NCBI GenBank assembly: GCA_043811795.1
Contig: JBDRMV010000116.1
Location: forward strand, 1 to 33,919
Reading direction: 5' to 3'
From: a bacterium
GTDB taxonomy: Bacteria > CG03
DNA: 33,919 bases
Shown here: in pieces, positions 1 to 20,002 of the stretch
Layout: every line of letters starts with the position of its first letter
Numbering within the stretch: position 1 is the stretch's first letter
Position numbers and translations under genes: made by a program
The notes under the pieces: model-generated
Database searches by the model: none
What the model saw: the letters and a program-made list of their open reading frames with translations, nothing else
Told to the model about the DNA's origin: nothing

Positions 1-273
1 TTCCGACTATGAGTTAAGGGCAGTGCTTAACGGGGAGAATCAGCCGGCGGATGATGTGTTTGTGGATGACACGGACGAGCTGACGAATGACAATCAGGCG
101 ATGACGGCAGCTATGTTTTATGGCAATGAGAGTGGGGCAGCTGTGTCGTCAGCAGTCGGGAGTGAAACAAGAGGTCTGTGGTTCAGGATAAATACGCCGT
201 ATGAAATTACGGACACATCGGAGCACTCGATTTATGTGTCGATAATAGCGACGCAGGGAGGATAAGGAGGGAA
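1..273 (+). repeat. Direct repeat, copy 1 (copy 2 at 1118..1390)
   Basis: Hand alignment of 1..265 with 1118..1382 gives 29 mismatches (~89% identity). Both copies continue as taaggagggaa past the stop. Confidence 0.95.
2..265 (+). CDS. Secreted beta-rich subunit, paralog A (5'-truncated by window edge)
   Basis: Frame is open from base 2 (SDYELRAVLNGENQPADD...IIATQGG*). It is collinear with the 3' end of 798..1382 at offset 1117 with no indels. Confidence 0.85.
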   Translation, partial: SDYELRAVLNGENQPADDVFVDDTDELTNDNQAMTAAMFYGNESGAAVSSAVGSETRGLWFRINTPYEITDTSEHSIYVSIIATQGG

Positions 274-283
274 GATAAAATAA

Positions 284-323
284 TAGATTGAGAAATTGAG
301 AAATTGAGAGATTAAGAGATTAA
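284..323 (+). repeat. 8-bp purine-rich tandem repeat (AGA(A/G)ATT(G/A))
   Basis: agattgagaaattgagaaattgagagattaagagattaag; a degenerate version follows paralog B at ~1390-1418. Confidence 0.7.
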
Positions 324-797
324 GGCGTATAGCATCTGAGTTTTGCGGAGGCGCTGCGCGCATGGCGCTTGTATTTGCACTTGTGCGCTTATGTTCGCCT
401 TAGACGAATGCTCTTAATCAGGAGAGGTGCTGAAAATGTAACAGGATAGTAGTTTATAAATTTTGAGGTATGGCGTTAGAGCGTATGTTGCGTTCACGCA
501 GTATTACCGTTGTTGAGCATAGGACAGCCGGGAATAATAAGAGAAAAATTTGGCAGCCGCAGGCATTAGCCTGCGTAAAGCCGCAATATATAGAGGAAAA
601 AAGCAAGTTGGAAATAAGGTGGAAGATGGTTGTAGCGGTGCGATTTATCGCACAATGAAAAAGGAGGTGATGCGTATGAGAGAAACTGTAGGGGCAGAGA
701 TTGCTTTGCCCGATAGACGATGGAGGATGAGGAACGTTGACAGTTGTTGCGCTCGCGCTTTTACGCGCTTGTGTACTGAAAGTGTAAGGAGGAAGAG

Positions 798-1382
798 ATG
801 AGTAGAAGAATGTTGATTGGGCTGGTGATGATGGTGACGTTTGCGGTGCTGGGTTATGCTTCCACGGATACGATAAGGCTGACGGTTACGGTGGCTCCGG
901 GAATAAATGTGGAGGTGTGGTATCTGGACTCGACTGCAGTCATGGATGTTTATGATTTCGGGTCGGATTTGCTGGCGAATCAGGCAACCCCGACGTTTGC
1001 GTCAATAACGGTGAAGAATGCGTCGATTGGATTAACCCAGGACTGGTACATCAGGGCATCAGATGCAATAGGTTCTGTGCAGGACTGGAATCTGGCGGAT
1101 ACCGTTACATCAGGCACTTCCAACTATGAGTTAAGGGCAGTGCTTAACGGGGAGAATCAGCCGGCGGATGATGAGTTTGTGGACACCGAGGACGAACTGA
1201 CGAATGACAATCAGGCGATGACGGCATCTGTGTTTAATGGCAGTGAGAACGGGGCATCAGTGTCGTCAGAAGACGGGTTTGACACAAGAGGGCTGTGGTT
1301 CAGGATAAATACGCCGTACGAAATTACGGACACGTCGGAGCACTCGATTTACGTGTCGATAATAGCGACACAGGCGGGCTAA
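798..1382 (+). CDS. Secreted acidic beta-rich protein, paralog B; candidate fimbrial/fibre subunit
   Basis: RBS aggagg upstream; Sec signal MSRRMLIGLVMMVTFAVLGYA; mature N-terminus STDTIRLTVTVAP with alternating hydrophobic residues; C-terminal beta strand HSIYVSIIAT. Confidence 0.75.
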   Translation: MSRRMLIGLVMMVTFAVLGYASTDTIRLTVTVAPGINVEVWYLDSTAVMDVYDFGSDLLANQATPTFASITVKNASIGLTQDWYIRASDAIGSVQDWNLADTVTSGTSNYELRAVLNGENQPADDEFVDTEDELTNDNQAMTASVFNGSENGASVSSEDGFDTRGLWFRINTPYEITDTSEHSIYVSIIATQAG

Positions 1383-1538
1383 GGAGGGAATGAGAAAATA
1401 AGAGATTAAGAGTTTGAGGTGATAGGTATATGTTGTGTGTGCGTGAAACGCGCAGAACACCACATAGAGAAATGAAAATAAGGAGTTAAATGTAGGTAAT
1501 TAAAAGAATTGAGAGATGATTATTAATTTTAGGAATTT

Positions 1539-3449
1539 ATGAAAAAGAGAGCCAGAATCTTTGCAGAATTGCTTGTCGTAGCAGGTCTGTTTATAAGAGG
1601 CCCTGCGTTCGGCTCTAATTCTGCTTCCGTGGCCCTGAAGATTATGGTTGATCCTTTTGAACCGTCAAGGATAACCGACTTCCAGGCGGGTTACGGCTCG
1701 GCTCTCGGCGAGGTTGATCTTAAATGGACCGCGCCCGGTGACGACGGGATAAAAGGCCAGCTCAGAGCGGGAGCGTATTTAATAAAATACGACAAAAAGA
1801 GTCCTGCTGATTTTGCGGAAGATACAACTTCCTGGTGGAAAAATGCGGGAAGATATTTAGTTGACAGTTCATGGATCCCGAATCCGCCGGGCACTGCCGA
1901 CACGAAAACGATAAACGCTTTTACGCATCAGGAAATTTACGACAGGGAAACATTTTATTTTGCCATTCAGTCAGTGGACAAAGTCGGCAGCGAATCTGTG
2001 ATTTCAGACATTGTTTCTGCCGTGCCGAGGTGGGATATAACGCCGCCTACGACGATTTCGGACCTCGTTGTTTCGTATAACGATAACAGAACAGGCGTTG
2101 TTCTTGAATGGACTGCGCCCAAAGATGTTTTCTTTCAGACGTATGAATCTAAAGTCGACGGCTATATTATAAGAAGGTCGACGGTTTCTCTCGGGGAACT
2201 TTCAGGCGTTGCGACAGCGTGGTGGAGCGCGGCGTCCGAAATTTCACCGCCAGAGCCCGCCGAACCCGGGACGGGAGAATCAATTGAATTGAATGACCTC
2301 ACGGGAGGCGTAACATATTATTTTGCGATAAAGAGTTTTGACGAGCAGGGCAATGTTTCGGAGATTGACACTCTGTTTACGGGGCGGGAAGGTATTTACA
2401 TAATGAAAGACGCGGCGACGCCGAACCGGGTTTCGGGAATTTGGGGTCAAATTGAAGGAAATAAATTCATAATTCACTGGTCCACCGTCGAAAAGAATAA
2501 CGACGGAACAACGGAGTGCGAAGACCTCGCGGGATATTATATAAGGTGTTCGCTGAATCCGTTTGACGCAGGAGTTATAACCGCAACGGTCGGCGCTCTC
2601 ACCACTTCGTACGAAACGTATTATTCGACAAATACTCCGGTTTATTATTATTCAATTACCGCTTTTGACGGCGCGTATCCGTGGATAAACGAGAGTGAAC
2701 TCTCAATGAGGATTGATTCTTCGGACGAGGTATCCCTCTGGCTCTGCTCGCAGAGAGCGGCGATAAGAATTCCGAAGACAGTTCAGGCAATAATGAGAAA
2801 AGAAAATAATTCTTACGGGGATAATATTGATATGGAAATTGAGCGGATTACAGGCGAGGAGAAGAGCAGGATTCTCTGCAGTTACAGGTTTGACGCGGTC
2901 AAGAACGTTTCAAAAGACACCGCCGGTAAATTTGTTTTCAGAAGGCCTTACGCCGAAATTCGGCTTTATTATTCGGGCGGGTCGGGTCCCGCCGCCCTGC
3001 AGGCGGAGGACAGTTATTCTATAATGTGGTATAATGGCAAAGAATGGCTCAAACTCGGCGGTGATGTTAATAAGAAGGAGGGTTTTGTATCCGTAAAGAC
3101 GGAGCGTATAGGGAAGTATCAGCTTCGCCGCTCAATCCGGGCGACGAAGTTCACTCTGGTCAATGGACCGATTCCGAAAATTATCACGCCGAATGGGGAC
3201 GGGCTTAATGATTTCTGCGAGTTCTTCTATGATAATCCGCAGAATTTTGCTCCTGCCGGAAAGATTTTTGACATAACGGGAGCTTTTGTTACGAATATGG
3301 CAAACGGTCCGTTGAGAAGCAATTCGTCGGGCTCTTTGAGGTGGAACGGATTTGACAGCTCCGGCAGGGTTGTCAGGTCGGGCATTTATATTTACCAGAT
3401 TGATGCGGGCGGGGAAGTTTATAACGGAACAGTGGTGGTGGCAAGATGA
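1539..3449 (+). CDS. Secreted fibronectin-III-like repeat protein with T9SS type-B-like (CHU_C/FlgD-Ig-like) C-terminal domain
   Basis: Signal peptide; repeated LxWTAP...Y.I...WW..A...P..PGT...YFAI.S.D..G..S.I FN3-like units; C-terminus PKIITPNGDGLND...KIFDITG...WNGFDSSGRVVRSGIYIYQI...GTVVVAR. Confidence 0.8.
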   Translation: MKKRARIFAELLVVAGLFIRGPAFGSNSASVALKIMVDPFEPSRITDFQAGYGSALGEVDLKWTAPGDDGIKGQLRAGAYLIKYDKKSPADFAEDTTSWWKNAGRYLVDSSWIPNPPGTADTKTINAFTHQEIYDRETFYFAIQSVDKVGSESVISDIVSAVPRWDITPPTTISDLVVSYNDNRTGVVLEWTAPKDVFFQTYESKVDGYIIRRSTVSLGELSGVATAWWSAASEISPPEPAEPGTGESIELNDLTGGVTYYFAIKSFDEQGNVSEIDTLFTGREGIYIMKDAATPNRVSGIWGQIEGNKFIIHWSTVEKNNDGTTECEDLAGYYIRCSLNPFDAGVITATVGALTTSYETYYSTNTPVYYYSITAFDGAYPWINESELSMRIDSSDEVSLWLCSQRAAIRIPKTVQAIMRKENNSYGDNIDMEIERITGEEKSRILCSYRFDAVKNVSKDTAGKFVFRRPYAEIRLYYSGGSGPAALQAEDSYSIMWYNGKEWLKLGGDVNKKEGFVSVKTERIGKYQLRRSIRATKFTLVNGPIPKIITPNGDGLNDFCEFFYDNPQNFAPAGKIFDITGAFVTNMANGPLRSNSSGSLRWNGFDSSGRVVRSGIYIYQIDAGGEVYNGTVVVAR

Positions 3450-3640
3450 GGAGCGTGAAGCGTGAAGAGAAAAGAGTGATGAGTAATGAGGGAAGAGTGA
3501 AGAATATGGAAAATAAAAAATTGAAACGATTTATTTTTCACACTGTACACTTCACATTTAACACTTCGCGCTTTGCACTTCGCGCTTTACACTTTACTCT
3601 TTACACTTTGCTCTTTACACTTTGCTCTTTATACGTCACG
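3446..3640. repeat. Heptamer repeat pair: purine (GTGAAGA-like, 3446-3503) and complementary pyrimidine (CTTTACA/CTTTGCT, ~3537-3640)
   Basis: Read directly from the sequence; the pyrimidine arm encodes the signal peptide h-region. Confidence 0.8.
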
Positions 3641-5116
3641 GTTTTTGCCGCTTTTGAAGATATCGGCGTCGGCGCACGTCCGATTTCAATGGCGAACGCT
3701 TTCACGGCGGTGGCGGACGACGTTCATTCGGTGTATTACAATCCTGCGGGTCTTGCGGGTTTAACAAAGTATGAAGTTGCCTCTTCCTACGGGAAACTTT
3801 TCTGGGGTCTTACGGATAATTCGAACATCGGGGTCAGTTTTCTGGCCGGCGCCGCTCCGGTCAGCCGGCTCAGGGGTGTTGTGGGTATTGGGATTAACCA
3901 GTTGAAACTTGACAATCTCTACCGGGAAGACCAGTACATACTGTCCTACGGACGGGAAATTAACTCTGGGAGGTTCGGGATGCTCGGCCTCGGTTCTTCT
4001 CTGAAAATTTTATCGCACAAGTTCGGCCGCGATGATTATACCGATAATGCAATAGATGAAACAGGGGTCTCTCATGACGGCGTCCCCGACCCTGTTTTTG
4101 CAAGCGGCCGCGGCAAAATGTCTTTTGCGGTTGATTTCGGCGTGATAAAAAATTATAATAATATGAAAATGGGTATTTCACTGCTTAACATAAATCAGCC
4201 GTCGGTCGGGCTGAGCGATAAAGGCGACAGGGTGCCGTTCGGGTTTAAGTTCGGTTTTTCGCATAAAGGAGAGAAGAGCATTCTCGCTTTTGAATTTTCA
4301 AGGAAGGACAGGGACAATATCCTGCGCAGCGGTCTGGAACTTTCTGTTTTTGAAAAGTTCGATTTCAGATGCGGTCTTGAAATCGGCAGCAGGGATTTTG
4401 CGAATATAAATTTTGGGTTCGGTTACCGGATTGAAAATAAATTCTTTATCGACTATTCTTTTATCCTTCCCACTATGGGGATAAAGGAGACATACGGGAC
4501 GCACAGGGTTTCTTTGAATGCGAAATTCGGGAAGAAGGTTCTTACGGAAAAAGCCCCGGTCAAAGAGCGCATAGAGGACGCCGAGAAACATTATATGAAG
4601 GGCGTTGATTTTTATCTTGAAGAGGACCTGAAAAATGCGGAGAAAGAGTTTAAAAAGGTTCTCGAAATAGACCCCGGCAACCAGCCGGCAATTGATATGC
4701 TGAAGGAATGCGGCGCGGGCGACGAGGCGAAGAAACCCGAGACGATGAAACCCGAAGAGAAAAGCGTGGAAATACCCGAAGAAGAAAAAGAAGCTCTCAA
4801 AAAGAAATATTTCGGAAGCGCTACGAAGTACTACTTAAAGGAAAATTATACAAAGGCGGTAGAAATGTGGGAGAAGGTTCTTCAACTGGACCCGTCTCAT
4901 GAGATTTCGCGGCAGAAAATTGAAAAAGCCGAAAAGATGAAAGCGCTCAAGGATAAAGCGGGCAAAGGGTCGCAGGTTGAATACCATTATATGAGGGGCG
5001 TTGATTTTTATCTTGACGAAGACATCGGAAACGCGAAGAAAGAGTTCAAAGAAGGTATTAAGATCGACCCGAACCACCGGCCGACGATTGATATGCTGAA
5101 AGAATGTGAGAAGTGA
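3506..5116 (+). CDS. PorP/SprF-PorV/PorQ-like outer membrane beta-barrel fused to C-terminal TPRs
   Basis: Mature N-terminus FEDIGVGARPISMANAFTAVADDVHSVYYNPAGL is the FadL/PorV-superfamily plug motif. Amphipathic strands end THRVSLNAKF and are followed by three TPR-like units. Start moved from 3446 to ATG 3506 because 3446-3503 is repeat DNA. Confidence 0.8.
   Translation: MENKKLKRFIFHTVHFTFNTSRFALRALHFTLYTLLFTLCSLYVTVFAAFEDIGVGARPISMANAFTAVADDVHSVYYNPAGLAGLTKYEVASSYGKLFWGLTDNSNIGVSFLAGAAPVSRLRGVVGIGINQLKLDNLYREDQYILSYGREINSGRFGMLGLGSSLKILSHKFGRDDYTDNAIDETGVSHDGVPDPVFASGRGKMSFAVDFGVIKNYNNMKMGISLLNINQPSVGLSDKGDRVPFGFKFGFSHKGEKSILAFEFSRKDRDNILRSGLELSVFEKFDFRCGLEIGSRDFANINFGFGYRIENKFFIDYSFILPTMGIKETYGTHRVSLNAKFGKKVLTEKAPVKERIEDAEKHYMKGVDFYLEEDLKNAEKEFKKVLEIDPGNQPAIDMLKECGAGDEAKKPETMKPEEKSVEIPEEEKEALKKKYFGSATKYYLKENYTKAVEMWEKVLQLDPSHEISRQKIEKAEKMKALKDKAGKGSQVEYHYMRGVDFYLDEDIGNAKKEFKEGIKIDPNHRPTIDMLKECEK
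4589..5106 (+). repeat. Intragenic ~122-bp duplicated TPR module (4589-4710 and 4985-5106)
   Basis: cattatatga(a/g)gggcgttgatttttatcttga...attgatatgctgaa(g/a)gaatg at offset 396, encoding HYMxGVDFYLxED...IDMLKEC twice. Confidence 0.9.
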
Positions 5117-5134
5117 AGAGGGAAGAGTGAAAAG

Positions 5135-5890
5135 ATGTTGAAGAAGATGGAAAACAAGAGATTTGTCGTTTGTTGTTTCCGTTCTATTCTTTACACTTTA
5201 CTCTTTACACTTTACTCTTTACACTTTACGATTTCTGCGGCTGAGGAAAAAAAGGTCTTTAAAAGAAACGTAAAGCTTGTTCTTCACAAAAAAGTTGAGT
5301 CGGTGAAAGTCCAGGGTTTTTTAGGGAGAGGGGAACGTCTTATGACGATTCCGATGCTGAAAAAAGGGAACGAATTTTACATAAATCTGAATCTCGGCGC
5401 CGGGTTTTATCCGTACAGATATCTGGTTGACGGGGAAAGATATATCACCGACCCGTACAACAAAGAAGACATCGTCCAGGGAGAGATTAAATATTCCCTT
5501 CTAAAGGTCTGGCCGGATAATCCCGAACTCTTTTTGAGCATGGCTTCCGATTTTATCGCAAAGAAGAAAGTTGAATGGGCAATTGATGTATATATCGAAG
5601 GGATTAAAACATTCCCGAAGGAAGTCAAACTCTATTCCGCCCTCGGGGAGTTTTATGAGGGGAAAAAATGGTTTGATTTTGCAGCGGACTGCTATCATTC
5701 GTATCTTGAGAATGACCCGGAAGATGCCGGAATGAGGTACAGGATCGCGAGTTGCTACGAGAAATTTTATCTTGATACTGACAAGAAAAAATTCGGGGAA
5801 TACGCGGTGTTTCACTGGGAAAAACTGTTCGGCACGAAGTACGAGGAAGAAGCAAAAAAACACATAAAAGAGTTGAAGAGTAAAGAGTGA
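5135..5890 (+). CDS. Exported CBM48/AMPK-beta glycogen-binding-like domain plus TPR protein
   Basis: Signal peptide ending TISA; VKVQGF...IPM.K....F...L.L..G.YPYRYLVDG...TDP.N matches the early-set/CBM48 pattern; TPR-like helices follow. Start is 5135 or 5147. Confidence 0.7.
   Translation: MLKKMENKRFVVCCFRSILYTLLFTLYSLHFTISAAEEKKVFKRNVKLVLHKKVESVKVQGFLGRGERLMTIPMLKKGNEFYINLNLGAGFYPYRYLVDGERYITDPYNKEDIVQGEIKYSLLKVWPDNPELFLSMASDFIAKKKVEWAIDVYIEGIKTFPKEVKLYSALGEFYEGKKWFDFAADCYHSYLENDPEDAGMRYRIASCYEKFYLDTDKKKFGEYAVFHWEKLFGTKYEEEAKKHIKELKSKE
5188..5229 (+). repeat. Perfect (TCTTTAC-ACTTTAC)x3 heptamer array
   Basis: Six heptamers read directly; complementary gtgaagagggaagagtgaa lies at 5113-5131. 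Confidence 0.9.
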
Positions 5891-5899
5891 AGATAATTT

Positions 5900-5921
5900 G
5901 TAGGCACGGTTTCAACCGTGC
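5900..5921 (+). repeat. GTAG-family REP
   Basis: GTAG followed by the perfect hairpin GCACGGTT-TC-AACCGTGC. Confidence 0.65.
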
Positions 5922-5936
5922 TGATTGGAGGAAATT

Positions 5937-6410
5937 ATGAAGTTCAAGAGAAGGAAGAAGCTTATTGAAAAGCGTTTGCAGATTAAAATTGCCGTTTATG
6001 TCGCGGTGGCGCTGCTCGTTGTCCTTGTTTTCTCGCTGATTTTTACGCATGCGACAATCAAATCGATTTTCCCGAGAATTCTTTCAACGACGATGGGTGC
6101 GAGAATTGCGGCAATTCAGACGAAACTTCTGATATTCGGAGTTGTCTATCTGATTTTTGCGGCGTTTATTTCCATCCTTATCTCGCACAAAATTGCAGGA
6201 CCCATTTTCAAGTTCAAAAAAGAAATAGGGAATATGATAAAAACCGGCGATATTTCACAGAGAATTTTTCTGCGTCAGGGCGACGAGTTGAAAGATTTAG
6301 CTGATTTGATGAACCAGCTGCTTGATATGATTGAAGCGTCTGCGGGCAAAGAAACGGCTGAGCGGCTCCGGCGGGTGGCGGAAGTGCAGGCGGAAAAGAG
6401 TGAAGAATGA
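5937..6410 (+). CDS. Small 2-TM HAMP-domain membrane protein with no output domain
   Basis: Two hydrophobic segments, then SHKIAGPI...GDISQRIFLRQGDELKDLADLMNQLL (HAMP); ggagg RBS before ATG 5937. Confidence 0.75.
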   Translation: MKFKRRKKLIEKRLQIKIAVYVAVALLVVLVFSLIFTHATIKSIFPRILSTTMGARIAAIQTKLLIFGVVYLIFAAFISILISHKIAGPIFKFKKEIGNMIKTGDISQRIFLRQGDELKDLADLMNQLLDMIEASAGKETAERLRRVAEVQAEKSEE

Positions 6411-6460
6411 AGTTGAGTCCGCCTGAAGCGGACGAAATCCGCCGAAGGCGGGAGAAAAGA

Positions 6461-6682
6461 ATGAAGAAATATATGAGAATCGGTGAAGTCGCGAAATTCT
6501 GCGGCGTTGCGAAAACGACAATCAGGCATTATACGGACATAGGAATCCTGCCTTTTGAAGGCAAGACGCCCTCGGGCCACCGCCTGTACGCTGCCAGAAA
6601 AACGCTGGTGAGAGTACAGATTATTAAAAGCGCCTCGCGTCCCCGCGCGTCGCTGAAAGACGTGAAAGAAAAATTGAGATAA
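6461..6682 (+). CDS. MerR-type HTH DNA-binding protein (HTH domain only)
   Basis: MRIGEVAKFCGVAKTTIRHYTDIGILP...SGHRLY. The upstream 6407-6460 is palindromic repeat DNA, so ATG 6461 is preferred. Confidence 0.8.
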   Translation: MKKYMRIGEVAKFCGVAKTTIRHYTDIGILPFEGKTPSGHRLYAARKTLVRVQIIKSASRPRASLKDVKEKLR

Positions 6683-6719
6683 AAAGTAAGGAAGAGACTA
6701 AGATATTGAGGGGGGTGTT

Positions 6720-7100
6720 GTGAGAAATAAAATTTTAATGGGCGGTGTTTTTTTACTTATTTTTGCTACAGGTATAAGAGCTGAACTTCCTCCTTGGCTT
6801 TCAGCAGTGCCAAAAATTGTTACGCCCGACGGCAACAACCACAACGATATATTTTATATTTTTTACAACCTCCCTGCTGATCCGGGAAGAGTGTCGGGAA
6901 AGGTTTTCAATTTGATAGGTATGAAAATGGCGGATTTCAGAAATGTCGGAGGAGAAGCCGTGGCAAAATATCCTGAGCCTGATGGAACTTGGGAAGGATA
7001 CCTTTACTGGGATGTCGGTTCCGCTCCGTCGGGTATTTATATTTATCAGATTGAATCGGGGAATGAAACTTATACAGGGACGGTTGTCGTCGCCAGATAA
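6720..7100 (+). CDS. Signal peptide plus stand-alone T9SS type-B-like CTD
   Basis: Signal ending GIRA; VPKIVTPDGNNHND...SGIYIYQIESGNETYTGTVVVAR is homologous to the C-terminus of 1539..3449. Confidence 0.8.
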   Translation: MRNKILMGGVFLLIFATGIRAELPPWLSAVPKIVTPDGNNHNDIFYIFYNLPADPGRVSGKVFNLIGMKMADFRNVGGEAVAKYPEPDGTWEGYLYWDVGSAPSGIYIYQIESGNETYTGTVVVAR

Positions 7101-7104
7101 GAAC

Positions 7105-9312: not shown

Positions 9313-9341
9313 ACCGGAAGTGAATATGAAAATGAAATAAT

Positions 9342-9571
9342 ATGAAACGTTCATGCCGGCAAGCCGTCACAAATTATGAAATGTAAATATATATGTTGTA
9401 GCATGCGAGCTTGCTCGCAAGATGAAAGCAAGCTTTCATGCTACAATGCGGAAATGAAAGCAAGCTTTCATGCTACAATGCGGAAATGAAAGCAAGCTTT
9501 CATGCTACATTGATGAGCAGTAATAGGGGTATTTACAGATGAAACGTTCATGCCGGCAAGCCGTCACAAAT
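9342..9571 (+). repeat. 33-bp exact direct repeats (9342-9374, 9539-9571) bracketing a REP cluster
   Basis: atgaaacgttcatgccggcaagccgtcacaaat occurs twice. Confidence 0.9.
9398..9509. repeat. GTAG-family REP doublet (REPIN-like) with tandem amplification of one arm
   Basis: GTAGCATGCGAGCTTGCTCGC (9398-9418), then three inverted copies in 32-bp units atgaaagcaagctttcatgctacaatgcggaa (9422, 9454, partial 9486). Confidence 0.8.
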
Positions 9572-9585
9572 GGGAATGAAAATCT

Positions 9586-9628
9586 AATCCCCCATTCCCC
9601 CTTTACAAAAGGGGGACAGAGGGGGATT
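9586..9628. repeat. Nested C5/G5 palindrome
   Basis: aatccccc-attccccctttacaaaagggggacaga-gggggatt. Confidence 0.7.
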
Positions 9629-9646
9629 TTTGGAATCTATTTACGG

Positions 9647-11032
9647 ATGAAAAAAAGCAGGAACAAAATCCACTTTTTGCGTTTTTATCTTTTTACCTTT
9701 TTGTTTTTTTGCGGTTTTACTTTTTCTTTCGCGTCGGTTCCGGATACCTCGGTCATTGAAAAGCAGGTTTCTTCTGTTCTTCAGAATGTTTTCAACATCA
9801 GGCAGTTTTCCGTTTCCGTAAGAATTGATGATTATGTAGAGATTATCAACATGGGCAAGGATAAGATGAATATTCTGCCGGGGGTCCCGATTGAGGAAAA
9901 GCTGATGGGCGCTCCGTCAAAACAGCTGGTCCAAAAATACAGGTTTTTGATAACGGTCGTTCTTCCGAGGAACGTTACGCTTGAAATGGAGCAGAGGGTC
10001 GAGCGTCTTTTGAAGGTCTGTTTGAGTTTAAAAGAAACCGATTCCCTGAAGATATTGAGAGAAGAATTTGTCAGCGCTCCGCCGGCCCCCCCCGCGGCAG
10101 AGGCGGAAGCGGTTTCTCCTCTTGCCGGTTTCGGGTTCAATGTTTTGAAATATTTTTCAAATCCCTCTAATATTCTGCTGGTAGCGGTTGTTTTAATAAT
10201 GTTTATTTTTCTTTTCGGGCCTCTGCGGTCTTTTATGAGATATGCGGCGACTTATTTTGCGAATGTTTCGCAAAAGGCGTCTCCTGAAACTCTGGAACTC
10301 GGCACCGGCGCTGTAAGGGGAAATCCCCTTGGGCCCGTCAATCTTCTCACTTCGCCCGAAGCGAAAGAGGCGAGCGGCGAAACAGCGGACGTCCCTTTTT
10401 CTTTTGTAAATGAAAAAAATATCTCAAACCTTGCTTTTCTCCTGCGTGACGAGGACTCGGAAAAAATCGCAAACATCGTAGGTTTCTTCAAGGAGCCGCT
10501 TATAGAAAATTTCGTCAGTTGTTTTCCCGAAGAAAAACAGTCGGATATAATGAGTTTCCTGGTGTATAAGAAGGAATTATCTTCGGATGGCATCAGGGGG
10601 CTGGAGCAGGAGATAAAGGAAAGGATTGATTACGTTTCGGGAGGGAAAGAGCGGCTGCTGAGGATGCTTGAGAATTCTTCCCGGCAGGTCCAGGAGCAGT
10701 TCCTGCAGCACATTGCCGACGAGGATCCCGTTCTCGCTACGGAACTGAGGAATTCAATCTTCCATTTTGAAGATCTTGCAAGGCAGGAAACATCCGTCGT
10801 TCAGACAGTCCTGAGGTTTGTTAATACGCGCGCGCTTGCGCAGGCGCTGCAGTTTTCCGACCCGGAAGTAAAGGATAGAATTTTCTCTATACTTTCGGAG
10901 GGCGCGCGGGATATTGTAACGGAGGAGCTTGAACTGTTGCCGGAGAATCAGACAGCTTCCCTGCGTGAGCAGAAGAATATCGTTGTCGTGGTAAGACGGC
11001 TGAAGGATGCCGGAACGATAGAACTCGGTTAA
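9647..11032 (+). CDS. FliF(RBM3)-like periplasmic domain + TM + FliG middle/C-terminal domain fusion
   Basis: Signal ending FSFA; IEKQVSSVLQNVF...FSVSVRID and RFLITVVL...EQRVERLLK...DSLKILREEF resemble FliF-C; TM NILLVAVVLIMFIFLF; PFSFV...LAFLLRDE (FliG-M); SGGKERL...IFHFEDL...VLRFV...LAQAL...RIFSILS...EQKNIVVVVRRLKDAGTIEL (FliG-C). The FliG part is high confidence, the FliF part moderate. Confidence 0.75.
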   Translation: MKKSRNKIHFLRFYLFTFLFFCGFTFSFASVPDTSVIEKQVSSVLQNVFNIRQFSVSVRIDDYVEIINMGKDKMNILPGVPIEEKLMGAPSKQLVQKYRFLITVVLPRNVTLEMEQRVERLLKVCLSLKETDSLKILREEFVSAPPAPPAAEAEAVSPLAGFGFNVLKYFSNPSNILLVAVVLIMFIFLFGPLRSFMRYAATYFANVSQKASPETLELGTGAVRGNPLGPVNLLTSPEAKEASGETADVPFSFVNEKNISNLAFLLRDEDSEKIANIVGFFKEPLIENFVSCFPEEKQSDIMSFLVYKKELSSDGIRGLEQEIKERIDYVSGGKERLLRMLENSSRQVQEQFLQHIADEDPVLATELRNSIFHFEDLARQETSVVQTVLRFVNTRALAQALQFSDPEVKDRIFSILSEGARDIVTEELELLPENQTASLREQKNIVVVVRRLKDAGTIELG

Positions 11033-11054
11033 AAATAGTGATTAGAAGAAATAT

Positions 11055-11219
11055 GGCGAGCGGTTTGTTGGCTCGGCATTGCCTTCCCACGCTTGAGGGT
11101 GGCTCGCTCCGCAGTCCTGCGGGGAGAAAGCAGAGACCCTCGGACTGACGGGCTTGTCAGGCAACGCCGTGCCTCCTGCGGAGATGTCGGTGAGCGTCCC
11201 CGCTGGCCAAACCGCGAGC
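11055..11219. other. GC-rich multi-stem structured intergenic element upstream of motA
   Basis: Outer stem gcggtttg/caaaccgc; cggcattgcct (11074-11084) pairs with aggcaacgccg (11159-11169); inner hairpin ctccgcag-tc-ctgcgggg. Confidence 0.5.
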
Positions 11220-11241
11220 AATTCGGTTGAGGTGAAATAAT

Positions 11242-11997
11242 ATGGATTTGATGACAATTTTGGGTCTTCTGGTGGGCGTGGCCGCGGTCTGGTTCGTTCT
11301 CGCTTCGGGCGGTATTATGGGCATGCTTTTTAATATTAACGCCGCGATTCTCGTCTTCGGAGGCGTTTTAGGAGCGACACTGATAACCTACCCCGGGCGC
11401 CTGATAAAAAGAATCCCGAAAGGCGTTTGGCTTATGTTTTTTCCGCTGCGAATTGATTTGCCGAGCGACATTATAAAGGTCTTTGAGACCTGTTCAAAAA
11501 AAATTCACAAAGAAGGGATAAGCACGGGTCTGCTTGAAATTATTCCGTCAAGGAACAAATTTTTTGTAAAGGCGATAAATTTCCTTGTGGACGGGTTTGA
11601 AGATGATTTTATAAGAGAAACAATGGAAAACGAAATTGATAATTTCAAAAAAAGACACAATCAGGCGGCGGATGTTTTTAAGTCGATGGGAGCTTACGCG
11701 CCGATTTTCGGCCTTCTCGGGACGCTTATCGGCGTTGTTCAGGTCTTGCAGAACCTGACCGACCCGGCGAGCATGGGCTCTTCAATGGCTATCGCCATCA
11801 CGACGACGTTTTACGGGATTTTTTCGACGAACTTTATTTTCCTGCCGATTGCAGGGAAACTTTCCGTTCAGACAAACAGGGAAACATTAATAAAAGAATT
11901 AGTCATAGAAGGAACCCTCGGCCTGAAGAAAGGCGAAATACCTTCTATTCTGAGACATCGGCTTCAGTCGTTCCTTGCCGATTATGAAAAAAAATAA
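11242..11997 (+). CDS. motA: Stator A subunit (MotA/PomA/MotP family)
   Basis: MDLMTILGL..., VFGGVLGATL, VDG, APIFGLLGTLIG, GSSMAIAITTTFYG, LPIAGKL, IEG; ~250 aa; gaggtg RBS. Confidence 0.92.
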   Translation: MDLMTILGLLVGVAAVWFVLASGGIMGMLFNINAAILVFGGVLGATLITYPGRLIKRIPKGVWLMFFPLRIDLPSDIIKVFETCSKKIHKEGISTGLLEIIPSRNKFFVKAINFLVDGFEDDFIRETMENEIDNFKKRHNQAADVFKSMGAYAPIFGLLGTLIGVVQVLQNLTDPASMGSSMAIAITTTFYGIFSTNFIFLPIAGKLSVQTNRETLIKELVIEGTLGLKKGEIPSILRHRLQSFLADYEKK

Positions 11998-12655
11998 ACC
12001 CGGCCCTGCGGGTCGCATCAAACAGCCGGAAAAACCGAAAGAAGGATCTCCTGTTTGGCTCACGATTTACTCCGACCTTATGACTAATCTGATGCTTTTT
12101 TTTCTTATGCTTTACGGGATTACCAGGATGAGCGTCGAAACAAAATCAACAATTCTTGAATCCCTCGCAATGCAGTTCAAGAATCCCGAGAAGCAGAAAG
12201 CCATTATGAAATCGTACGAAAAGACTGCCGCCGACATTGAAAAGTTTATGGTTAACGTCCGTGAAAATCCTGTCGTGGAAGAGGTGCTTGCGGAGCAGTC
12301 GGGGTACAAAATTCTTCTAAAAGCGCCCGTCCTTTTTCATTCGGCGCGTGCTCAAATCAGGGATGAATCAAAAATTCAGCTTTTAACGCTTGCGCAGTTT
12401 CTCGCCGCAATTCCGAATACGGTCGAGATTATCGGGCACACGGATGACATCCCCGTAACGGGAACGAAGTGGAAAAACAATTGGGAACTTTCTCTGGCAA
12501 GAGCCGAAAGCGTGAGGAATTTTCTCGTGTCTCAGGGGATAAAAAAGGAAAAATTCTGTATTGCGGGGTATGGTTCCAAGAGGCCTATTTGCCCGAACGA
12601 TAGCCAGGAAAACCGCCGCCGCAACAGGAGAATAGAAATAATTGTTTTGAAATAA
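11984..12655 (+). CDS. motB: Stator B subunit (MotB/PomB) with OmpA-like peptidoglycan-binding domain
   Basis: WLTIYSDLMTNLMLFF with the essential Asp (gac 12074-12076); GHTDD, NWELSLARA, NRRIEI; overlaps the motA stop. Confidence 0.92.
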   Translation: MKKNKPGPAGRIKQPEKPKEGSPVWLTIYSDLMTNLMLFFLMLYGITRMSVETKSTILESLAMQFKNPEKQKAIMKSYEKTAADIEKFMVNVRENPVVEEVLAEQSGYKILLKAPVLFHSARAQIRDESKIQLLTLAQFLAAIPNTVEIIGHTDDIPVTGTKWKNNWELSLARAESVRNFLVSQGIKKEKFCIAGYGSKRPICPNDSQENRRRNRRIEIIVLK

Positions 12656-12755
12656 TGGAACGCGCGCATCTGCGTAATTTAAATGAACCCTGATAGGAAT
12701 TGTATAAAAAATATTCGTATAATAGAAACCGCAATGATAAATAAAATAAAGGAAT

Positions 12756-12898
12756 AGGCGTATGCACATGAATCAAGTTGGTATATTAAACAGGGAAAAT
12801 CGGGTCACCTCTATTTTTTCTTACGATACAAAAGTAAAAAATAGAAGTGACCCATTTTCGCATTATAAGGCGATTACTGGAATCAAGTGCATACGCCT
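12756..12898. mobile_element. MITE-like element with terminal inverted repeats and target-site duplication
   Basis: TIR aggcgtatgcac/gtgcatacgcct; flanking direct repeat ataaaggaat at 12746-12755 and 12899-12908; internal IR gggtcacctctatttttt/aaaaaatagaagtgaccc. Confidence 0.8.
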
Positions 12899-12918
12899 AT
12901 AAAGGAATTTCCAACAGG

Positions 12919-14457
12919 GTGAACATAAAGAGGAGAATCATTTTAACGGCGGTTCTGCCGGTCGCCGGCGTTTTGATTGTTTCGCTTATAGCGGGAGATT
13001 TTTTCACGGGCTCTTTTGAAAAAAAATGGATAAACGCTCAACTTGAAAAAAGATACGAGAAAGTTGAAGTCATTTTCGACAGACATTTTTCAATTCTGCG
13101 GTCGCCGGAAAAGGAAATATTCACCGCTCTTGTAATGAAGATGCAGTCATGGGGGGAACTGAACAAATTTTTTATCCGTTTTTCGCCCCTTTATCCCCAA
13201 CTGGAGAAGATTTCAGTCTCCCGCGGAGATGACAATATCGCAGGGATTTCAAAACTTTCCGTAAATTCATTCGGGAATTTTCCGGTGAATGAAAAAACAA
13301 ATCTCAGCGATATCTTCCAGGTGGGCGGCATGTCTTATACGGCGTTTAAAATTGAAGGCGAAGACGGCTACGAAATTTCCGGAATTATAGGGCTTTCTTC
13401 TCTTTTTGAAAAAGCGGCAGGGTTTTCTTTCAGTCCCGGCGGTTCGGTAAAAATTTATTCCAGGGCTCCGAATTCCGAAGCGTCCGTCGGCGCTGCAAGG
13501 TCTTTCCCGCTGCTCAAAGGTCTGTGGTCCGTTGAATTCACGGATGATTTTACGGCCGTTTATAAGATGAGATCTAATTTCAGAAATATTTTTATATTGT
13601 TTGCCGCCGCGGTATTTTTTCTGATGTATATTATTTCGGTATCTTCCGCGCGCAGGATATCTTTCCGGCTGGCGGCCCTTCGCGGGGACGCTAATATATC
13701 CGAAAGCGAAGATGAAATATCCGTTATTTCAAAACAATTTAAGGAACTTCGCAAGACGCAGAACGAACTCCGCCGGCAGATAAGTTTGCAGGACGCCGTC
13801 GGCATCCTCGGCAAGAATGTTTCCATGATAGGCCATGAATTAAGAAATCCGCTGGCGGCGATAAAGAACGCGCAGTATTTTATTTCGTCGCAGTTGCCTG
13901 ATGAAATAAAAAAAGGTCTGGTGGGGAAACATCTGCAGATAATAAAAAACGAGATAAAATTAATTTCGTCAATGGTTGAGGATTTGCTGACCCTTTCAAG
14001 AGTTAAGCCGCCCGTGTACGCTGAATGCGACGTAAACGCGCTCATCAACGAGTCGGTCGATTTATTCGCGGCGGACACCCAGCTTATTGACTTTATTGTA
14101 AAACCCGGGAGAATTTCAAAAGTGCCGGCGGACGCTTCGGAGATAAAGCAGGTTTTCCTGAACATCATAAGAAATTCCTGCGAGGCGATTACGCCGCCCG
14201 GGGAAATAAAAATAGAAATTGGAGAACAGGAAAATTTTGTAAAAATCAAATTTACCGATACCGGCTGCGGGATACCGCCGGACAAGCAGGAAGAAATATG
14301 GAAACCCTTTTTCTCGACCAAGAGTTCCGGTATGGGCTTCGGGCTTTCAACCGTAAAAAGAATCGTGGAGGAAAGGCACAAGGGCAAGGCGGAGATTAAA
14401 AGCCTGCCCGGGAAGGGTACCGAAATAACGATTTATCTGCCGCAAAAGCAGGAATAA
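12919..14457 (+). CDS. Membrane sensor histidine kinase (HisKA-HATPase)
   Basis: Two TMs around a periplasmic domain; H-box GHELRNPL, N-box QVFLNIIRNS, DTGCGI, PFFSTK, GMGFGL. Start uncertain; GTG 12919 lies outside the MITE. Confidence 0.9.
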   Translation: MNIKRRIILTAVLPVAGVLIVSLIAGDFFTGSFEKKWINAQLEKRYEKVEVIFDRHFSILRSPEKEIFTALVMKMQSWGELNKFFIRFSPLYPQLEKISVSRGDDNIAGISKLSVNSFGNFPVNEKTNLSDIFQVGGMSYTAFKIEGEDGYEISGIIGLSSLFEKAAGFSFSPGGSVKIYSRAPNSEASVGAARSFPLLKGLWSVEFTDDFTAVYKMRSNFRNIFILFAAAVFFLMYIISVSSARRISFRLAALRGDANISESEDEISVISKQFKELRKTQNELRRQISLQDAVGILGKNVSMIGHELRNPLAAIKNAQYFISSQLPDEIKKGLVGKHLQIIKNEIKLISSMVEDLLTLSRVKPPVYAECDVNALINESVDLFAADTQLIDFIVKPGRISKVPADASEIKQVFLNIIRNSCEAITPPGEIKIEIGEQENFVKIKFTDTGCGIPPDKQEEIWKPFFSTKSSGMGFGLSTVKRIVEERHKGKAEIKSLPGKGTEITIYLPQKQE

Positions 14458-14638
14458 GTATGCACGTGCCAACCAACAATCTTTTCACCTTCTGGGGGGT
14501 GACAAGCGACGAGTGTCCGCCGGCGGCGGATGAGAGGAGCACAATCAGGGGGGGAAATCCCCCCTATTGAATCAAGCATCCGGGAATTACTTGTGTCCGT
14601 AAGGGTACAGGCGAGTGAGTAAGTATAACGGAGGGGCA

Positions 14639-15013
14639 ATGGATAAAAAAAAGATATTAATTGTTGACGACGATTTCAGTGTGCGGGAAACGCTCGGGGA
14701 TATTCTGCGTTCCTGCTCTTATGAGGTTTTTGAGGCGGCCACCGGCGCCGAGGCGGCTAAACAGGTTGAGCTGGAGGAATTCGATTGCGTAATTGTTGAT
14801 TTGCGCCTGCCGGATGCGACCGGACATGAAGTCATAGAGAAAATCTCCGGTAGAGTAGAAAAAAACAAAATTATTATCATCACGGGATACGCTTCGTCCG
14901 AAGTGCTTTCAAAAGCGCTGCTTGATGCGGAGTATTTTCTGCTTTTGAAACCCGTTACGCCGGAGCAATTATTGGCGGTTGTCCGGAAAATTGCAACCGG
15001 CGGAAAAAAATAA
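14639..15013 (+). CDS. Single-domain response regulator (CheY-like receiver)
   Basis: ILIVDDD, VDLRLPD, IITGY, LLKP; ggagg RBS; no output domain. Confidence 0.9.
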   Translation: MDKKKILIVDDDFSVRETLGDILRSCSYEVFEAATGAEAAKQVELEEFDCVIVDLRLPDATGHEVIEKISGRVEKNKIIIITGYASSEVLSKALLDAEYFLLLKPVTPEQLLAVVRKIATGGKK

Positions 15014-15014
15014 A

Positions 15015-15800
15015 ATGGCTGAAGAAGCAAATTGGAATGTTCCATACGGCAATTTAATGACGATTCTTATGATATTTTTTCTGCTCCTTTACGCTTTTAC
15101 GTTTCTCACGGGCAACGTCAATTACGAAAGAGTCGTCGCTTCGCTTTCCGCCGGTTTCGGAAAAACCACGCCCTTTAAGGAGGTTGCTCTCGCGGAATAC
15201 CTTGAAGATTACTTTTCAAAGAAACAGGGTTTTCTCAGAAAACTTCAGATTGATGCCGACAGAATAAAACTTATTTTCAACATACCGATTTTTTTCAAAA
15301 AAGGGAGCACTGAAATTAAGCCCGCGGCGGTCAAAATTTTGGATGATATCTGTCTGGTGATGCTGGACATACCTAATAACATTATCATAGAGGGTTATTC
15401 GACCGAGGAAGCGGGGCAGAATGAGATGCTTATTTCAGCAGGCAGGGCTTTGGGAATCGGGAAGTTTTTCATTGACAAAGGTATCGACCCGTACAGAATA
15501 GTAATCAAAGGGTGGGGGAGCAGCCGTCCGTTTGCCACCGAATCCGACAGAAAAAACAACATCCTCAACAACAGGGTGGAAATAAGCATTCAGCGCGCCG
15601 TCTCTATCGCAATGCCCCCGACAAGCGAGAAATTACAGAGGATGAAGGAACTCCATTTTTACGGCAATTATTACTACGGGCAGGGGGATATTAAAAAGGC
15701 GGAGGAATATTTCGAGAAAATTCTTGAAATCGACCCCGCTCACTGGAAAGCGAAACAAATGATAAGAAAAATCAAAAAACAAAAAAGGGGTCAGCTCTGA
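15015..15800 (+). CDS. Atypical MotB paralog (Asp->Asn, degenerate OmpA domain, C-terminal TPR)
   Basis: WNVPYGNLMTILMIFF; IEGYST in place of GHTD; ISAGRA; NNRVEI; C-terminal GNYYYGQGDIKKAEEYFEKILEIDPAHWKAK. Confidence 0.8.
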   Translation: MAEEANWNVPYGNLMTILMIFFLLLYAFTFLTGNVNYERVVASLSAGFGKTTPFKEVALAEYLEDYFSKKQGFLRKLQIDADRIKLIFNIPIFFKKGSTEIKPAAVKILDDICLVMLDIPNNIIIEGYSTEEAGQNEMLISAGRALGIGKFFIDKGIDPYRIVIKGWGSSRPFATESDRKNNILNNRVEISIQRAVSIAMPPTSEKLQRMKELHFYGNYYYGQGDIKKAEEYFEKILEIDPAHWKAKQMIRKIKKQKRGQL

Positions 15801-15842
15801 TTTTTTTAATAAGCTGCCTGTGGAAAAAATAGAACTGACCCC
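15787..15842. repeat. GGGGTCAG...CTGACCCC palindromic doublet spanning the gene junction
   Basis: ggggtcagctctgattttttt / aaaaaatagaactgacccc; same core as the IR inside the 12756-12898 MITE. Confidence 0.7.
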
Positions 15843-19157: not shown

Positions 19158-19221
19158 ATCCGGATTCATGCTGTTTGTCATTAGCGGCGGATACGGAGGA
19201 TACGGAAAGGAGGTAAAATAA
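19144..19221 (+). pseudogene. Stub of a third GT-C copy
   Basis: atgaagaaaattaaatccggattcatgctgtttgtcatt matches the first 39 nt of the 17316 gene with 4 mismatches, then diverges and stops after 25 codons. Confidence 0.6.
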
Positions 19222-19229
19222 AATTTACA

Positions 19230-19925: not shown

Positions 19926-19936
19926 GCAAATGGGGC

Positions 19937-19965
19937 TTGACAAATGTACAAATTCAAACTAAAAT
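19937..19965 (+). promoter_or_regulatory. Sigma70-type promoter for the pilin gene
   Basis: TTGACA-17 bp-TAAAAT. Confidence 0.75.
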
Positions 19966-20002
19966 ATGATGACTCAACTTGAGCAAAAAGGGGGTGAGTA
20001 AA

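Follow-up and report, generated by a model that had tools for sequence, protein, structure and literature searches.

What does a motor built from flagellar rotor and stator parts do in a bacterium that has no flagellum? The question is raised by a 33,919-nucleotide contig (JBDRMV010000116.1 of assembly GCA_043811795.1; C116 below) from a bacterium of the GTDB lineage CG03. The whole contig was analyzed and is called the window. The assembly measures 1.74 Mb in 161 contigs and is 92.6% complete. The runs containing the sequence of the window were groundwater metagenomes, and the homologs of its proteins are labeled as Elusimicrobiota metagenome-assembled genomes by NCBI, which places the members of this small groundwater phylum there. 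We found that the window carries one of three paralogous non-flagellar motor modules of the phylum, encoded beside genes that resemble outer-membrane parts of Bacteroidota's T9SS (type 9 secretion system). That this is a functional non-flagellar MotAB/FliG module is the narrower claim, and we hold it much more firmly than the wider one; that the motor stands in for GldLM/PorKN in a T9SS-like secretion or surface-protein system has, in our judgment, about an even chance of being right. Window proteins were identified via open reading frame (ORF) calls, Pfam and NCBIfam. In the following, C numbers denote contigs of the same genome and L numbers the loci that were compared (L005 is C123, L006 is C78 and L004 is C61).

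The rotor-like fusion, its stator and the missing flagellum

The rotor-like protein of the window matched FliG_C (PF01706) at 83.2 bits, against a cut-off of 23.3. Its FliG_M match (20.3 bits) remained below the cut-off of 25, which was exceeded by its paralogs (42.8 and 33.7 bits). The full-length alignment of the protein comprised 15 homologs. In the AlphaFold2 (AF2) model, which had a mean predicted local distance difference test value (pLDDT) of 69, a transmembrane (TM) helix at residues 6-27 and a second TM segment near 173-190 enclose a periplasmic domain at 35-139, folded as alpha-beta-beta-alpha-beta with a long hairpin round an invariant LPGVP loop. The second TM segment (TM2) is followed by a disordered linker and then by FliG_M and FliG_C. 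Using Foldseek, we observed that the C-terminal half resembles structures of the middle and C-terminal domains of FliG (FliG MC; E 5e-11) and stator-bound FliG_C (8ucs_H; E 9e-4), with TMt values of 0.83-0.92 for the FliG_C matches 1qc7 and 8ucs_H. The N-terminal half matched the FliF RBM3/S-ring region over about 140 columns (E 0.015-0.05, probability 1.0). Similarly, both paralogs in the same genome matched YscJ_FliF_C just under the cut-off, and the C123 paralog spanned the whole profile (22.7 versus 23.8 bits). The family profile matched the FliG MC of Thermotoga maritima at E 3e-41, and alignment with that protein indicated that the acidic pair of the torque helix and an MFxF-like hinge are retained. 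The earlier note, made from the letters of this DNA, had called the protein a FliF-FliG fusion; this is right in outline, FliG_M and FliG_C being present, and has to be narrowed for the FliF part, which is an RBM3/TM2-like piece without FliF RBM1-2 and without FliG_N. In a search of sequences clustered at 50% identity, the fusion family had 7082 representatives at E <= 1e-3, and 259 at E <= 1e-30. The whole profile is spanned by most of the 150 top-ranking matches, and the LPG[VI]P loop was present in 114 of the 169 family proteins retrieved.

The stator genes downstream are of the flagellar kind. MotA aligned over its entire length with the known structures of flagellar MotA and PomA, scoring 148-175 bits (PDB MotA 9lu9, 175 bits). 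Its best NCBIfam matches were the flagellar MotA, MotP and PomA models at 176-191 bits, all of them under the equivalog cut-offs of 237-394, and TolQ reached 18.9 bits. MotB1 retains the channel Asp in the motif YSDLMT, as well as the plug and the OmpA domain. A second MotB in the window has Asn at the site of the channel Asp (YGNLMT) and carries, as in type 1 loci generally, a tail of tetratricopeptide repeats (TPR). This replacement recurs: the second copy was Asp-less (Asn or Thr) in all eight two-MotB loci in which its site was readable (the window, L006 [C78] at 2251-2943, L009, L014, L025, L027, L031 and L034), and the first copy kept the channel Asp wherever readable. In all, the genome holds five genes of the MotA_ExbB family, three for MotA and two of the TolQ/ExbB type.

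A complete flagellum elsewhere in the genome had been set as the refutation of a dedicated machine. None was found: the genome gave zero matches for FHIPEP (FlhA, PF00771), Flg_bbr_C (PF06429), YscJ_FliF (PF01514) and FliMN_C (PF01052), with each control matched in four flagellated genomes. Moreover, neither FHIPEP over its cut-off nor Flagellin_N (PF00669) was found in any of 26 genomes of the phylum (0/26 each). We also ruled out a hidden flagellar locus as the source of the three FliG_C matches of the genome, since all three are TM fusions followed by MotAB.

The FliF piece, FliG, FlbD and MotAB all belong to flagellar families in a phylum without flagella, as might be left by a lost flagellum that is decaying without function. 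Such a remnant is very unlikely, because the fusion is conserved, its genes are under constraint and the gene order is kept. Indeed, the fusion was present with intact frames in 21 of 26 species genomes of the phylum, including 14 of the 14 high-quality ones, with up to three paralogs each, and its new domain architecture is conserved as well. The ratio of nonsynonymous to synonymous substitution (dN/dS) was 0.10-0.31 for seven genes compared with the 92%-identical ortholog locus L009; a saturated value for the histidine kinase gene (dN 2.0), almost certainly due to faulty coordinates, was left out. In addition, contigs of a close relative (90-99% alike) from a groundwater RNA library partly cover the genes for cargo, TPR/HAMP proteins, barrel 2, the fusion, MotA/MotB1 and MotB2, which is a hint of expression, DNA carry-over being possible in such a library.

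Motor types, gene order and T9SS-like neighbors

The three paralogous FliG_C motor loci of the genome represent three types. Type 1, the type of the window locus, was found only in family f1 of the phylum. In type 2 (C123), the fusion measures about 640-700 aa and bears a C-terminal cytoplasmic TPR, and a PorV/PorQ-family barrel is encoded upstream; the fusion is followed by a coiled-coil protein of 1000-1650 aa, often by FlbD (83-90 bits), and then by MotA, MotB and a Wzy_C/TPR protein. The coiled-coil protein, placed between fusion and MotA, showed no signal peptide and SMC-like matches only (e.g., L005 [C123] at 9731-13420, minus strand). The FlbD/SwrD-family gene (PF06289, 59-90 bits) lies directly before MotA in type-2 loci of genomes that are not flagellated (L022:14912-15139, L091:11551-11775, L087:11758-12030 and others). 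A search of the corresponding gap in the window (11033-11241) did not find it, and the type-1 locus is without FlbD. In type 3 (C78), a fusion of about 465 aa is followed by MotA, MotB and an Asp-less MotB.

We compared gene order in the three loci of this genome and 29 retrieved genome loci, among which 29 fusion genes had an upstream ORF in view. In 20 of these 29, the ORF immediately upstream of the fusion was a barrel gene of the same strand, and in 23 a barrel gene lay within two ORFs; the loci without a barrel within two ORFs upstream were C78, L015, L034, L035, L036 and L037. Mere abundance of barrels was ruled out as the source of this adjacency, since 33 of the 1795 ORFs of the genome (1.8%) belong to the barrel family, 18 of them with TPR, according to custom hidden Markov models (HMMs) built from this genome and its relatives. 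MotA followed within four ORFs downstream of the fusion in 22 of 31 loci. Among the nine misses, five reach the end of the sequence before a fourth ORF. In L018, MotA is located farther downstream, L012 and L015 carry unrelated genes at this place, and L019 is a Clostridia-labeled record. Seven type-1 orthologs (52-92% identity) had barrel 2 before the fusion in six cases and MotA after it in five; a small gene for a protein with a C-terminal sorting domain (CTD) preceded barrel 2 in five of the six orthologs having this barrel, the sixth being cut inside it. A metagenome set of 79 loci, all of the type-2-like subfamily, contained 74 with a fusion ORF and 57 with an upstream ORF in view, and in 33 of these 57 a barrel was again directly upstream of the fusion. 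The linkage of motor genes with barrel and CTD genes that had been noticed in this one locus holds over three paralogous locus types, nine families of the phylum and many metagenome loci. Its absence from other genomes was the second refutation named in the earlier note, so that neither of the two came true.

The barrels themselves are of T9SS kind. Barrel 1 of the window matched PorP_SprF at 42.8 bits (cut-off 22.3) and PorV_fam at 57.7 bits, under the cut-off of 90 for that model. Barrel 2, the one adjacent to the motor, is 28% identical to barrel 1 over 536 aa; a Pfam barrel match was not found for it. Its AF2 model (pLDDT 81.7) has 14 strands at 99-346 and helices at 352-748 that form a helical repeat domain of about 400 aa, and Foldseek matched the model to FadL (E 9e-8) and to chains 6h3i_F (E 1.4e-7) and 8gl6_F, both from type 9 translocon entries. 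The barrel on C123 reached 136.3 bits on PorV_fam, over the cut-off of 90. Overall, the PorV/PorQ family was matched at E <= 0.001 by 39 of 42 barrels (41 motor-adjacent ones and barrel 1 of the window), barrel 2 of the window being one of the three without such a match. The term PorP/SprF-like, first applied to these barrels, is borne out by the match of barrel 1 over the cut-off and is too narrow in that PorV/PorQ fits the barrels equally well.

Proteins with a T9SS-type CTD are frequent in this genome. The custom HMMs detected 24 CTD ORFs, one of which is a false match on an OmpA protein, and a CTD gene was located directly upstream of 16 of the 33 barrels. The first cargo protein of the window (cargo 1) scored 23.3 bits on CHU_C as a whole protein and 28.8 bits with its isolated last 120 aa (cut-off 27), and matched TIGR04131 and TIGR04183 weakly. 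We scanned 22 CTDs, i.e., the two of the window and 20 others; with respect to the 23 candidates, two were left out and one was added, and the OmpA false match was omitted. At E <= 0.01, 21 of them matched TIGR04183 (type A), 5 TIGR04131 (type B), 14 CHU_C and 11 Por_Secre_tail. In an alignment, both window CTDs bear a PNGDG-like motif, which we take to be typical of type B domains. Elsewhere in the genome, giant CTD-tagged proteins are encoded at C118:3-16169 (5388 aa, cut by the contig start) and C64:9675-24116 (4813 aa), and a barrel-TPR gene comes directly after the former.

We then looked for the remaining T9SS components. A SprA/Sov-like protein of 1708 aa (C61:4202-9328; L004 703-5829) matched TIGR04189 in four stretches (E 3.3e-51, 173.8 bits versus a cut-off of 200) and Pfam SprA_N weakly. 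A SprA-like protein of about 1700 aa was found in 25 of the 26 genomes of the phylum, none over the cut-off, and PorP_SprF was matched at E <= 0.001 in 17 of the 26. Searches of the genome for GldL and GldM (TIGR03513, TIGR03517, PF12081) and for GldN, which had no positive control, gave zero matches, and across the phylum genomes GldL was over the cut-off in 0/26 and GldM in 0/26. GldK scored 55 bits, versus a cut-off of 350, on a generic FGE-sulfatase-like protein that is absent from the sister genome. The PorU sortase model NF033707 matched mostly CTD parts; a protein of 801-815 aa at C118:28947-31352, which has a CTD at its end, matched the middle of the PorU model (positions 366-728; 35.7 and 19.6 bits).

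All long ORFs of positions 1-19157 are on the plus strand, with short gaps or overlaps between them (Table 1). The co-directional run from the fibre-like subunits to the second MotB, described in the earlier note for positions 1-15800, was confirmed by ORFs, Pfam and NCBIfam, every gene of that list being present, on the plus strand and in its place. Three genes had been missed: those for the secreted TPR protein, the HAMP-like protein and the MerR regulator. The secreted TPR protein has a paralog on C125 that adjoins a cargo/barrel pair, and a MerR gene upstream of the small CTD gene is kept in L009, L010, L011 and L014.

Table 1. Features encoded in the motor locus of the window
Position	Strand	Feature	Support and remarks
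2-265	+	C-terminal fragment of a fibre-like secreted subunit, start on contig C109	No Pfam family; 83% identical to the product of 798-1382
798-1382	+	Fibre-like secreted subunit, 194 aa	No Pfam/NCBIfam family
1539-3449	+	FN3-repeat surface protein with type-B-like T9SS C-terminal sorting domain (cargo 1)	fn3 and CHU_C; 4-nt overlap with next gene
3446-5116	+	PorP/SprF-PorV-like outer-membrane barrel with C-terminal TPR tail (barrel 1)	PorP_SprF, TPR
5135-5890	+	Secreted TPR protein, 251 aa, with weak carbohydrate-binding-module-like N-part	AMPK1_CBM 22.6 bits (below cut-off); MamA/TPR matches
5925-6410	+	Small membrane protein, weak HAMP-like segment	HAMP 19.6 bits (below cut-off); kept in L009
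6407-6682	+	MerR-family helix-turn-helix regulator	MerR 53.8 bits
6720-7100	+	Stand-alone CTD protein, 126 aa: signal peptide and type-B-like sorting domain	CHU_C 24.5 bits (below cut-off)
7063-9312	+	FadL/PorV-like 14-strand outer-membrane barrel with TPR tail of about 400 aa (barrel 2, motor-adjacent)	AF2 model, Foldseek
9647-11032	+	Rotor-like fusion: TM1, periplasmic RBM3-like domain, TM2, linker, FliG_M, FliG_C	Pfam, AF2, Foldseek
11242-11997	+	Flagellar-type stator A subunit, MotA/PomA-like	MotA_ExbB 92 bits
11975-12655	+	Stator B subunit MotB1: plug, channel Asp, OmpA-like peptidoglycan-binding domain	MotB_plug 45.5 bits, OmpA 71.4 bits
12847-14457	+	Membrane sensor histidine kinase	HisKA, HATPase_c; kept in L009, L010 (partial), L014
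14615-15013	+	Stand-alone receiver, CheY-like response regulator	Response_reg 81.6 bits; kept in L009, L014
14979-15800	+	Second MotB-like protein: plug, OmpA, C-terminal TPR	MotB_plug 35.1 bits, OmpA 50.5 bits, TPR_2 29.9 bits

At the upstream end, the assembly breaks inside tandem paralogs of the fibre-like subunit. C109:1-140 overlaps window positions 1-140 (about 140 nt), and reverse-complemented C109 joins the 5' end of the window; it extends the locus upstream by two further paralogs of the fibre subunit, a secreted protein of Ig-like type, two membrane proteins with Wzy_C, a TPR protein and another MerR protein. The genome has five paralogs of the fibre-like subunit according to a custom HMM. 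On the downstream side of the motor, positions 15820-24091 encode two paralogous PMT_2 (GT-C) glycosyltransferases, a GT2 enzyme, a Wzy_C/TPR protein, a prepilin peptidase and a type IV pilin-like protein with an N-methylation motif. Wzy_C/TPR genes were also observed after the C123 motor and on C109. Their presence near motors, together with that of the glycosyltransferase genes, suggests glycosylation of surface proteins.

These surroundings bear on the idea, proposed with the first description of the locus, that it encodes a rotating surface filament. In such a fibre machine, MotAB/FliG would assemble, rotate or retract a filament of 190-aa fibre-like subunits as a flagellin-independent rotating appendage, with the barrel as its outer-membrane port. 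Tandem genes for fibre-like subunits do precede the motor in the window and on C109, such genes recur in L009, L011 and close to the type-3 motor of L034, the locus is flanked by glycosyltransferase and Wzy_C/TPR genes, and the structure neighbors of the subunit in the Atlas include Fimbrial, K88 and CS1 subunits (TM score 0.52-0.59), which are leads under the Atlas naming bar. However, the fibre HMM matched 0/79 metagenome loci and nothing in the vicinity of the phylum's type-2 loci, torque or subunits have neither rod nor hook nor export gate to pass through, and the signal peptides of the subunits are ordinary. We thus consider this machine improbable, the filament option having little support beyond gene neighborhood.

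The DNA of the locus showed a few further traits. At 3537-3631, 5188-5229 and 7176-7223, a CTTTACA-like unit of 7 nt is repeated in tandem (6 to 13 copies); these repeats are within the stretches that code for the signal peptides of barrel 1, of the secreted TPR protein and of barrel 2. A change in their copy number would shift the reading frame, because the unit is not a multiple of three; the repeats may provide on/off switching of outer-membrane genes or may only reflect an aromatic-rich signal peptide that these proteins share. Barrel 2 and the fusion gene are separated by a gap of 334 nt, which contains, at 9422-9509, 2.8 perfect tandem copies of a 32-nt unit whose core is palindromic. 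This repeat may be an operator or a variable regulatory region; a DNA contig of a relative has 155 other letters in place of window stretch 9313-9741. Rfam gave zero matches in the window at gathering scores. A clear terminator was not found in the intergenic gaps of the window by a promoter/terminator scan, which was uninformative (32 promoter-like sites versus 19.4 expected, 22 terminator-like sites versus 18.6 expected). Farther downstream, a HEAT-repeat protein with a partial GGDEF match (32.5 bits, part of the domain) is encoded at 30584-32284 among housekeeping genes.

Proposed coupling and possible outputs of the motor

In flagella, peptidoglycan-anchored MotA5B2 units convert ion flow into torque on FliG_C, and FliF RBM3 domains build rings. 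In the mechanism that we propose, wall-fixed MotA5MotB2 units would push on the FliG_C domains of the fusion using the proton (or sodium) gradient, and the fusion would oligomerize via its RBM3-like domain. The periplasmic face of the fusion may meet the TPR tail of the adjacent PorV/PorP-like barrel, and movement would cross the periplasm via this tail and the TPR tail of the Asp-less second MotB, a putative added scaffold anchored to the wall. The movement would then reach PorV/PorP-like barrels that hold or collect CTD-tagged surface proteins. The assembly could energize the export of CTD proteins via the SprA-like channel, their attachment to the surface or their lateral movement, as GldLM/PorLM and the PorKN ring do in Bacteroidota, and the histidine kinase and stand-alone receiver would tune the motor.

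We give this mechanism about even odds. Its most far-reaching version, a new ion-driven rotary envelope machine in which MotAB turns a rod-less ring of FliF/FliG fusions that is TPR-coupled to PorV-like barrels and powers secretion or movement of CTD proteins in place of GldLM/PorKN, we consider less likely than not. The notion of the earlier note of a differently energized T9SS-like system gained new support: the SprA-like protein, the common T9SS-type CTDs and the failure to detect GldL, GldM and GldN in our searches all agree with it. The coupling to barrels is weakly backed by one complex prediction. In that prediction, the TPR tail of barrel 2 and the periplasmic domain of the fusion obtained a score of 0.40, compared with 0.00 for the best of three controls, with contact agreement of at least 47% and partner pLDDT of at least 64 in the runs. 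Among 80 solved complexes, 58 attained the mark of the method, as did 2 among 110 mismatched pairs.

Several points weigh against this reading. At a score as low as the one just cited, a pass is wrong more frequently than it is right, except for guesses that were likely beforehand: scores of 0.60 or lower were obtained for only 7 of the 80 solved complexes, plus both passing mismatches. Ring formation, rotation and coupling to barrels via TPR tails are steps that we infer from genomic and predicted data, and it is difficult to see, in mechanical terms, how a wide ring could pull outer-membrane barrels along across the cell wall. In the fusion, an invariant Gly occupies the equivalent of the MotA-pairing Arg, which we take to be R281 of Escherichia coli FliG. 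The FliM-binding motif, presumably EHPQR-like in flagellar FliG, is not retained, its position reading DESSEK-like in the profile alignment. FliG_N was not found in the fusion protein by Pfam, the FliF-like part being joined directly instead, and the similarity to FliF consists of Pfam matches under the cut-off and Foldseek E-values near 0.02. On the T9SS side, the SprA-like protein not only scores under its NCBIfam cut-off but is also about 600 aa shorter than the model, and the searches for GldL, GldM and GldN matched nothing in 14 control genomes either, so that divergent forms could escape them. The incompleteness of the genome and its division into 161 contigs also have to be considered.

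Moreover, the two TolQ/ExbB-type motors of the genome could serve outer-membrane processes. They also bear on the possibility that the module is an envelope tether, in which motor, OmpA-type anchors, TPR proteins and barrel would hold or remodel the envelope (e.g., at division) by ion-motive force, without cargo, similarly to Tol-Pal. A 5:2 motor, an OmpA-like anchor, TPR and an outer-membrane barrel indeed resemble the tethers Tol-Pal/CpoB (PMC12204202) and PorE-PorP (PMC9143113). Furthermore, the Asp-less MotB2 with its TPR looks like a static anchor, and Wzy_C/TPR and GT-C genes adjoin the motors. We nevertheless regard a tether as a minor possibility: the genome already has these two separate TolQ/ExbB-type motors, FliG_C/MotA torque parts are known from no tether system, and cargo is suggested both by the CTD gene that recurs upstream of the barrel and by the T9SS-like surroundings.

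A class of loci without barrels is what speaks most strongly against a fixed coupling to them. In 24 of the 57 metagenome loci, fusion(-FlbD)-MotA-MotB stand beside unrelated genes with no barrel within two upstream ORFs; type-3 loci, that on C78 included, are often without an adjacent barrel, and the orthologs L012 and L015 lack adjacent MotAB. Because such loci exist, the output of the motor may not be the barrel. The fusion and MotAB, with or without FlbD, might instead work in the cell or in the inner membrane. In type-2 loci they might act on the large coiled-coil protein, either as a motor of a cytoskeleton or track or by sensing ion-motive force, and the barrels in this phylum would be no more than co-regulated neighbors. 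This would fit the 24 barrel-less loci that keep fusion, FlbD, MotA and MotB, and also the type-2 loci, which always insert the 1000-1650-aa cytoplasmic coiled-coil protein and whose fusions carry a cytoplasmic TPR tail. We give such an output a small chance. The direct barrel-to-fusion order recurs over the three paralog types, nine families and many metagenome lineages, the LPGVP-loop periplasmic domain of 114/169 family proteins argues for a periplasmic partner, and the predicted contact of the TPR tail weakly supports one.

Comparison with known systems

We rate the module and its neighbors as a new kind of system, because it belongs neither to the flagellar motor nor to the T9SS and because we found no published description of it, supplementary gene tables being outside the literature covered; its function rests on inference, and its hosts are uncultured. 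What calls for attention is that flagellar-type torque parts are under purifying selection across a phylum without flagella, fused to a piece of FliF and gene-linked to T9SS-like outer-membrane parts. If our reading is true, this would be a new way of energizing outer-membrane secretion or gliding, and a T9SS-like system outside the FCB group with its motor swapped. It would also be a natural rotor-stator module without an export apparatus, which bears on the evolutionary assembly of the flagellar motor. Atlas feature neighbors with the same Pfam set (scores 0.87-0.94) in Elusimicrobiota, Cloacimonadota, Bdellovibrionota, Myxococcota and Thermodesulfobacteriota are leads to a rotor-stator core without type III secretion export parts in other phyla as well. 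Those to Bdellovibrionota and Myxococcota suggest that cultured, genetically tractable hosts may exist.

To our knowledge, the MotA-FliG torque interface is known only from flagella. In a survey of the relatives of MotAB, the clade of flagellar-type stators is regarded as flagellar (PMC12505986), and three known rotary motors driven by proton-motive force, namely, the Fo ATP synthase, the flagellar motor and the T9SS, are listed in a review (PMC9127263). Like the flagellar motor, the module has the FliG_M/FliG_C fold with its torque helix, a periplasmic domain of RBM3-like type that leads into a TM segment, similarly to the C terminus of FliF, a flagellar-type MotA, a MotB with plug, channel Asp and OmpA-like anchor and, in type-2 loci, FlbD before MotA. 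In contrast to that motor, the FliF and FliG parts form one polypeptide without FliF RBM1-2 and FliG_N, and the sites that we take to correspond to the EHPQR-like FliM site and R281 are not kept. FliM/N was not found in the same genome, and the searches of genome and phylum gave no matches to export gate, rod/hook or filament. The extra Asp-less MotB with TPR and the T9SS-like outer-membrane neighbors are further differences.

The T9SS is confined to Bacteroidota or the FCB group, according to published abstracts. There, porP-porK-porL-porM-porN are co-transcribed, and PorP associates with PorKLMN (PMC5445135). Barrels of the PorP kind, by which type B CTD proteins are held, bind to the PorKN ring as well as to PorE, a TPR/OmpA protein; a complex comprising PorE (TPR and OmpA_C), PorP and a CTD protein of type B is also described (PMC9143113). 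The present system shares with the T9SS CTD sorting domains of both motif types and 14-strand PorV/PorP-family barrels encoded beside CTD cargo. It also has a candidate for the SprA-like giant barrel, and TPR and OmpA-type wall-anchor domains as in PorE. The barrel gene directly precedes the motor genes, as in porP-porKLMN, and a receiver is encoded in the motor locus, which may be compared with PorX, a protein that binds PorL. It differs in that GldL, GldM and GldN were not detected and GldK gave the generic FGE-sulfatase-like match only. MotAB would act on a cytoplasmic FliG domain, whereas the T9SS has a periplasmic GldM shaft. Moreover, the barrels bear fused TPR, the SprA-like protein (about 1700 aa) is under the family cut-off, and the host is outside the FCB group.

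The Agl-Glt gliding machinery of Myxococcus combines a TolQR-like AglRQS motor with TPR and outer-membrane barrel Glt proteins and the coiled-coil protein AglZ. Similarly to that machinery, an ion-driven 5:2 motor is here co-encoded with TPR proteins, outer-membrane barrels and adhesin-like surface proteins, and type-2 loci add a large cytoplasmic coiled-coil protein. The TPR models of GltC and Tgl gave weak matches, and Glt orthologs were not identified. The motor is of the flagellar MotAB kind with a FliG partner, whereas Agl-Glt is TolQR-like with TonB-like GltG/J, and the CTD and PorV-like parts are of T9SS kind. Taken as a whole, the system may best be likened to a flagellar rotor and stator at the inner membrane and to a T9SS at the outer membrane.

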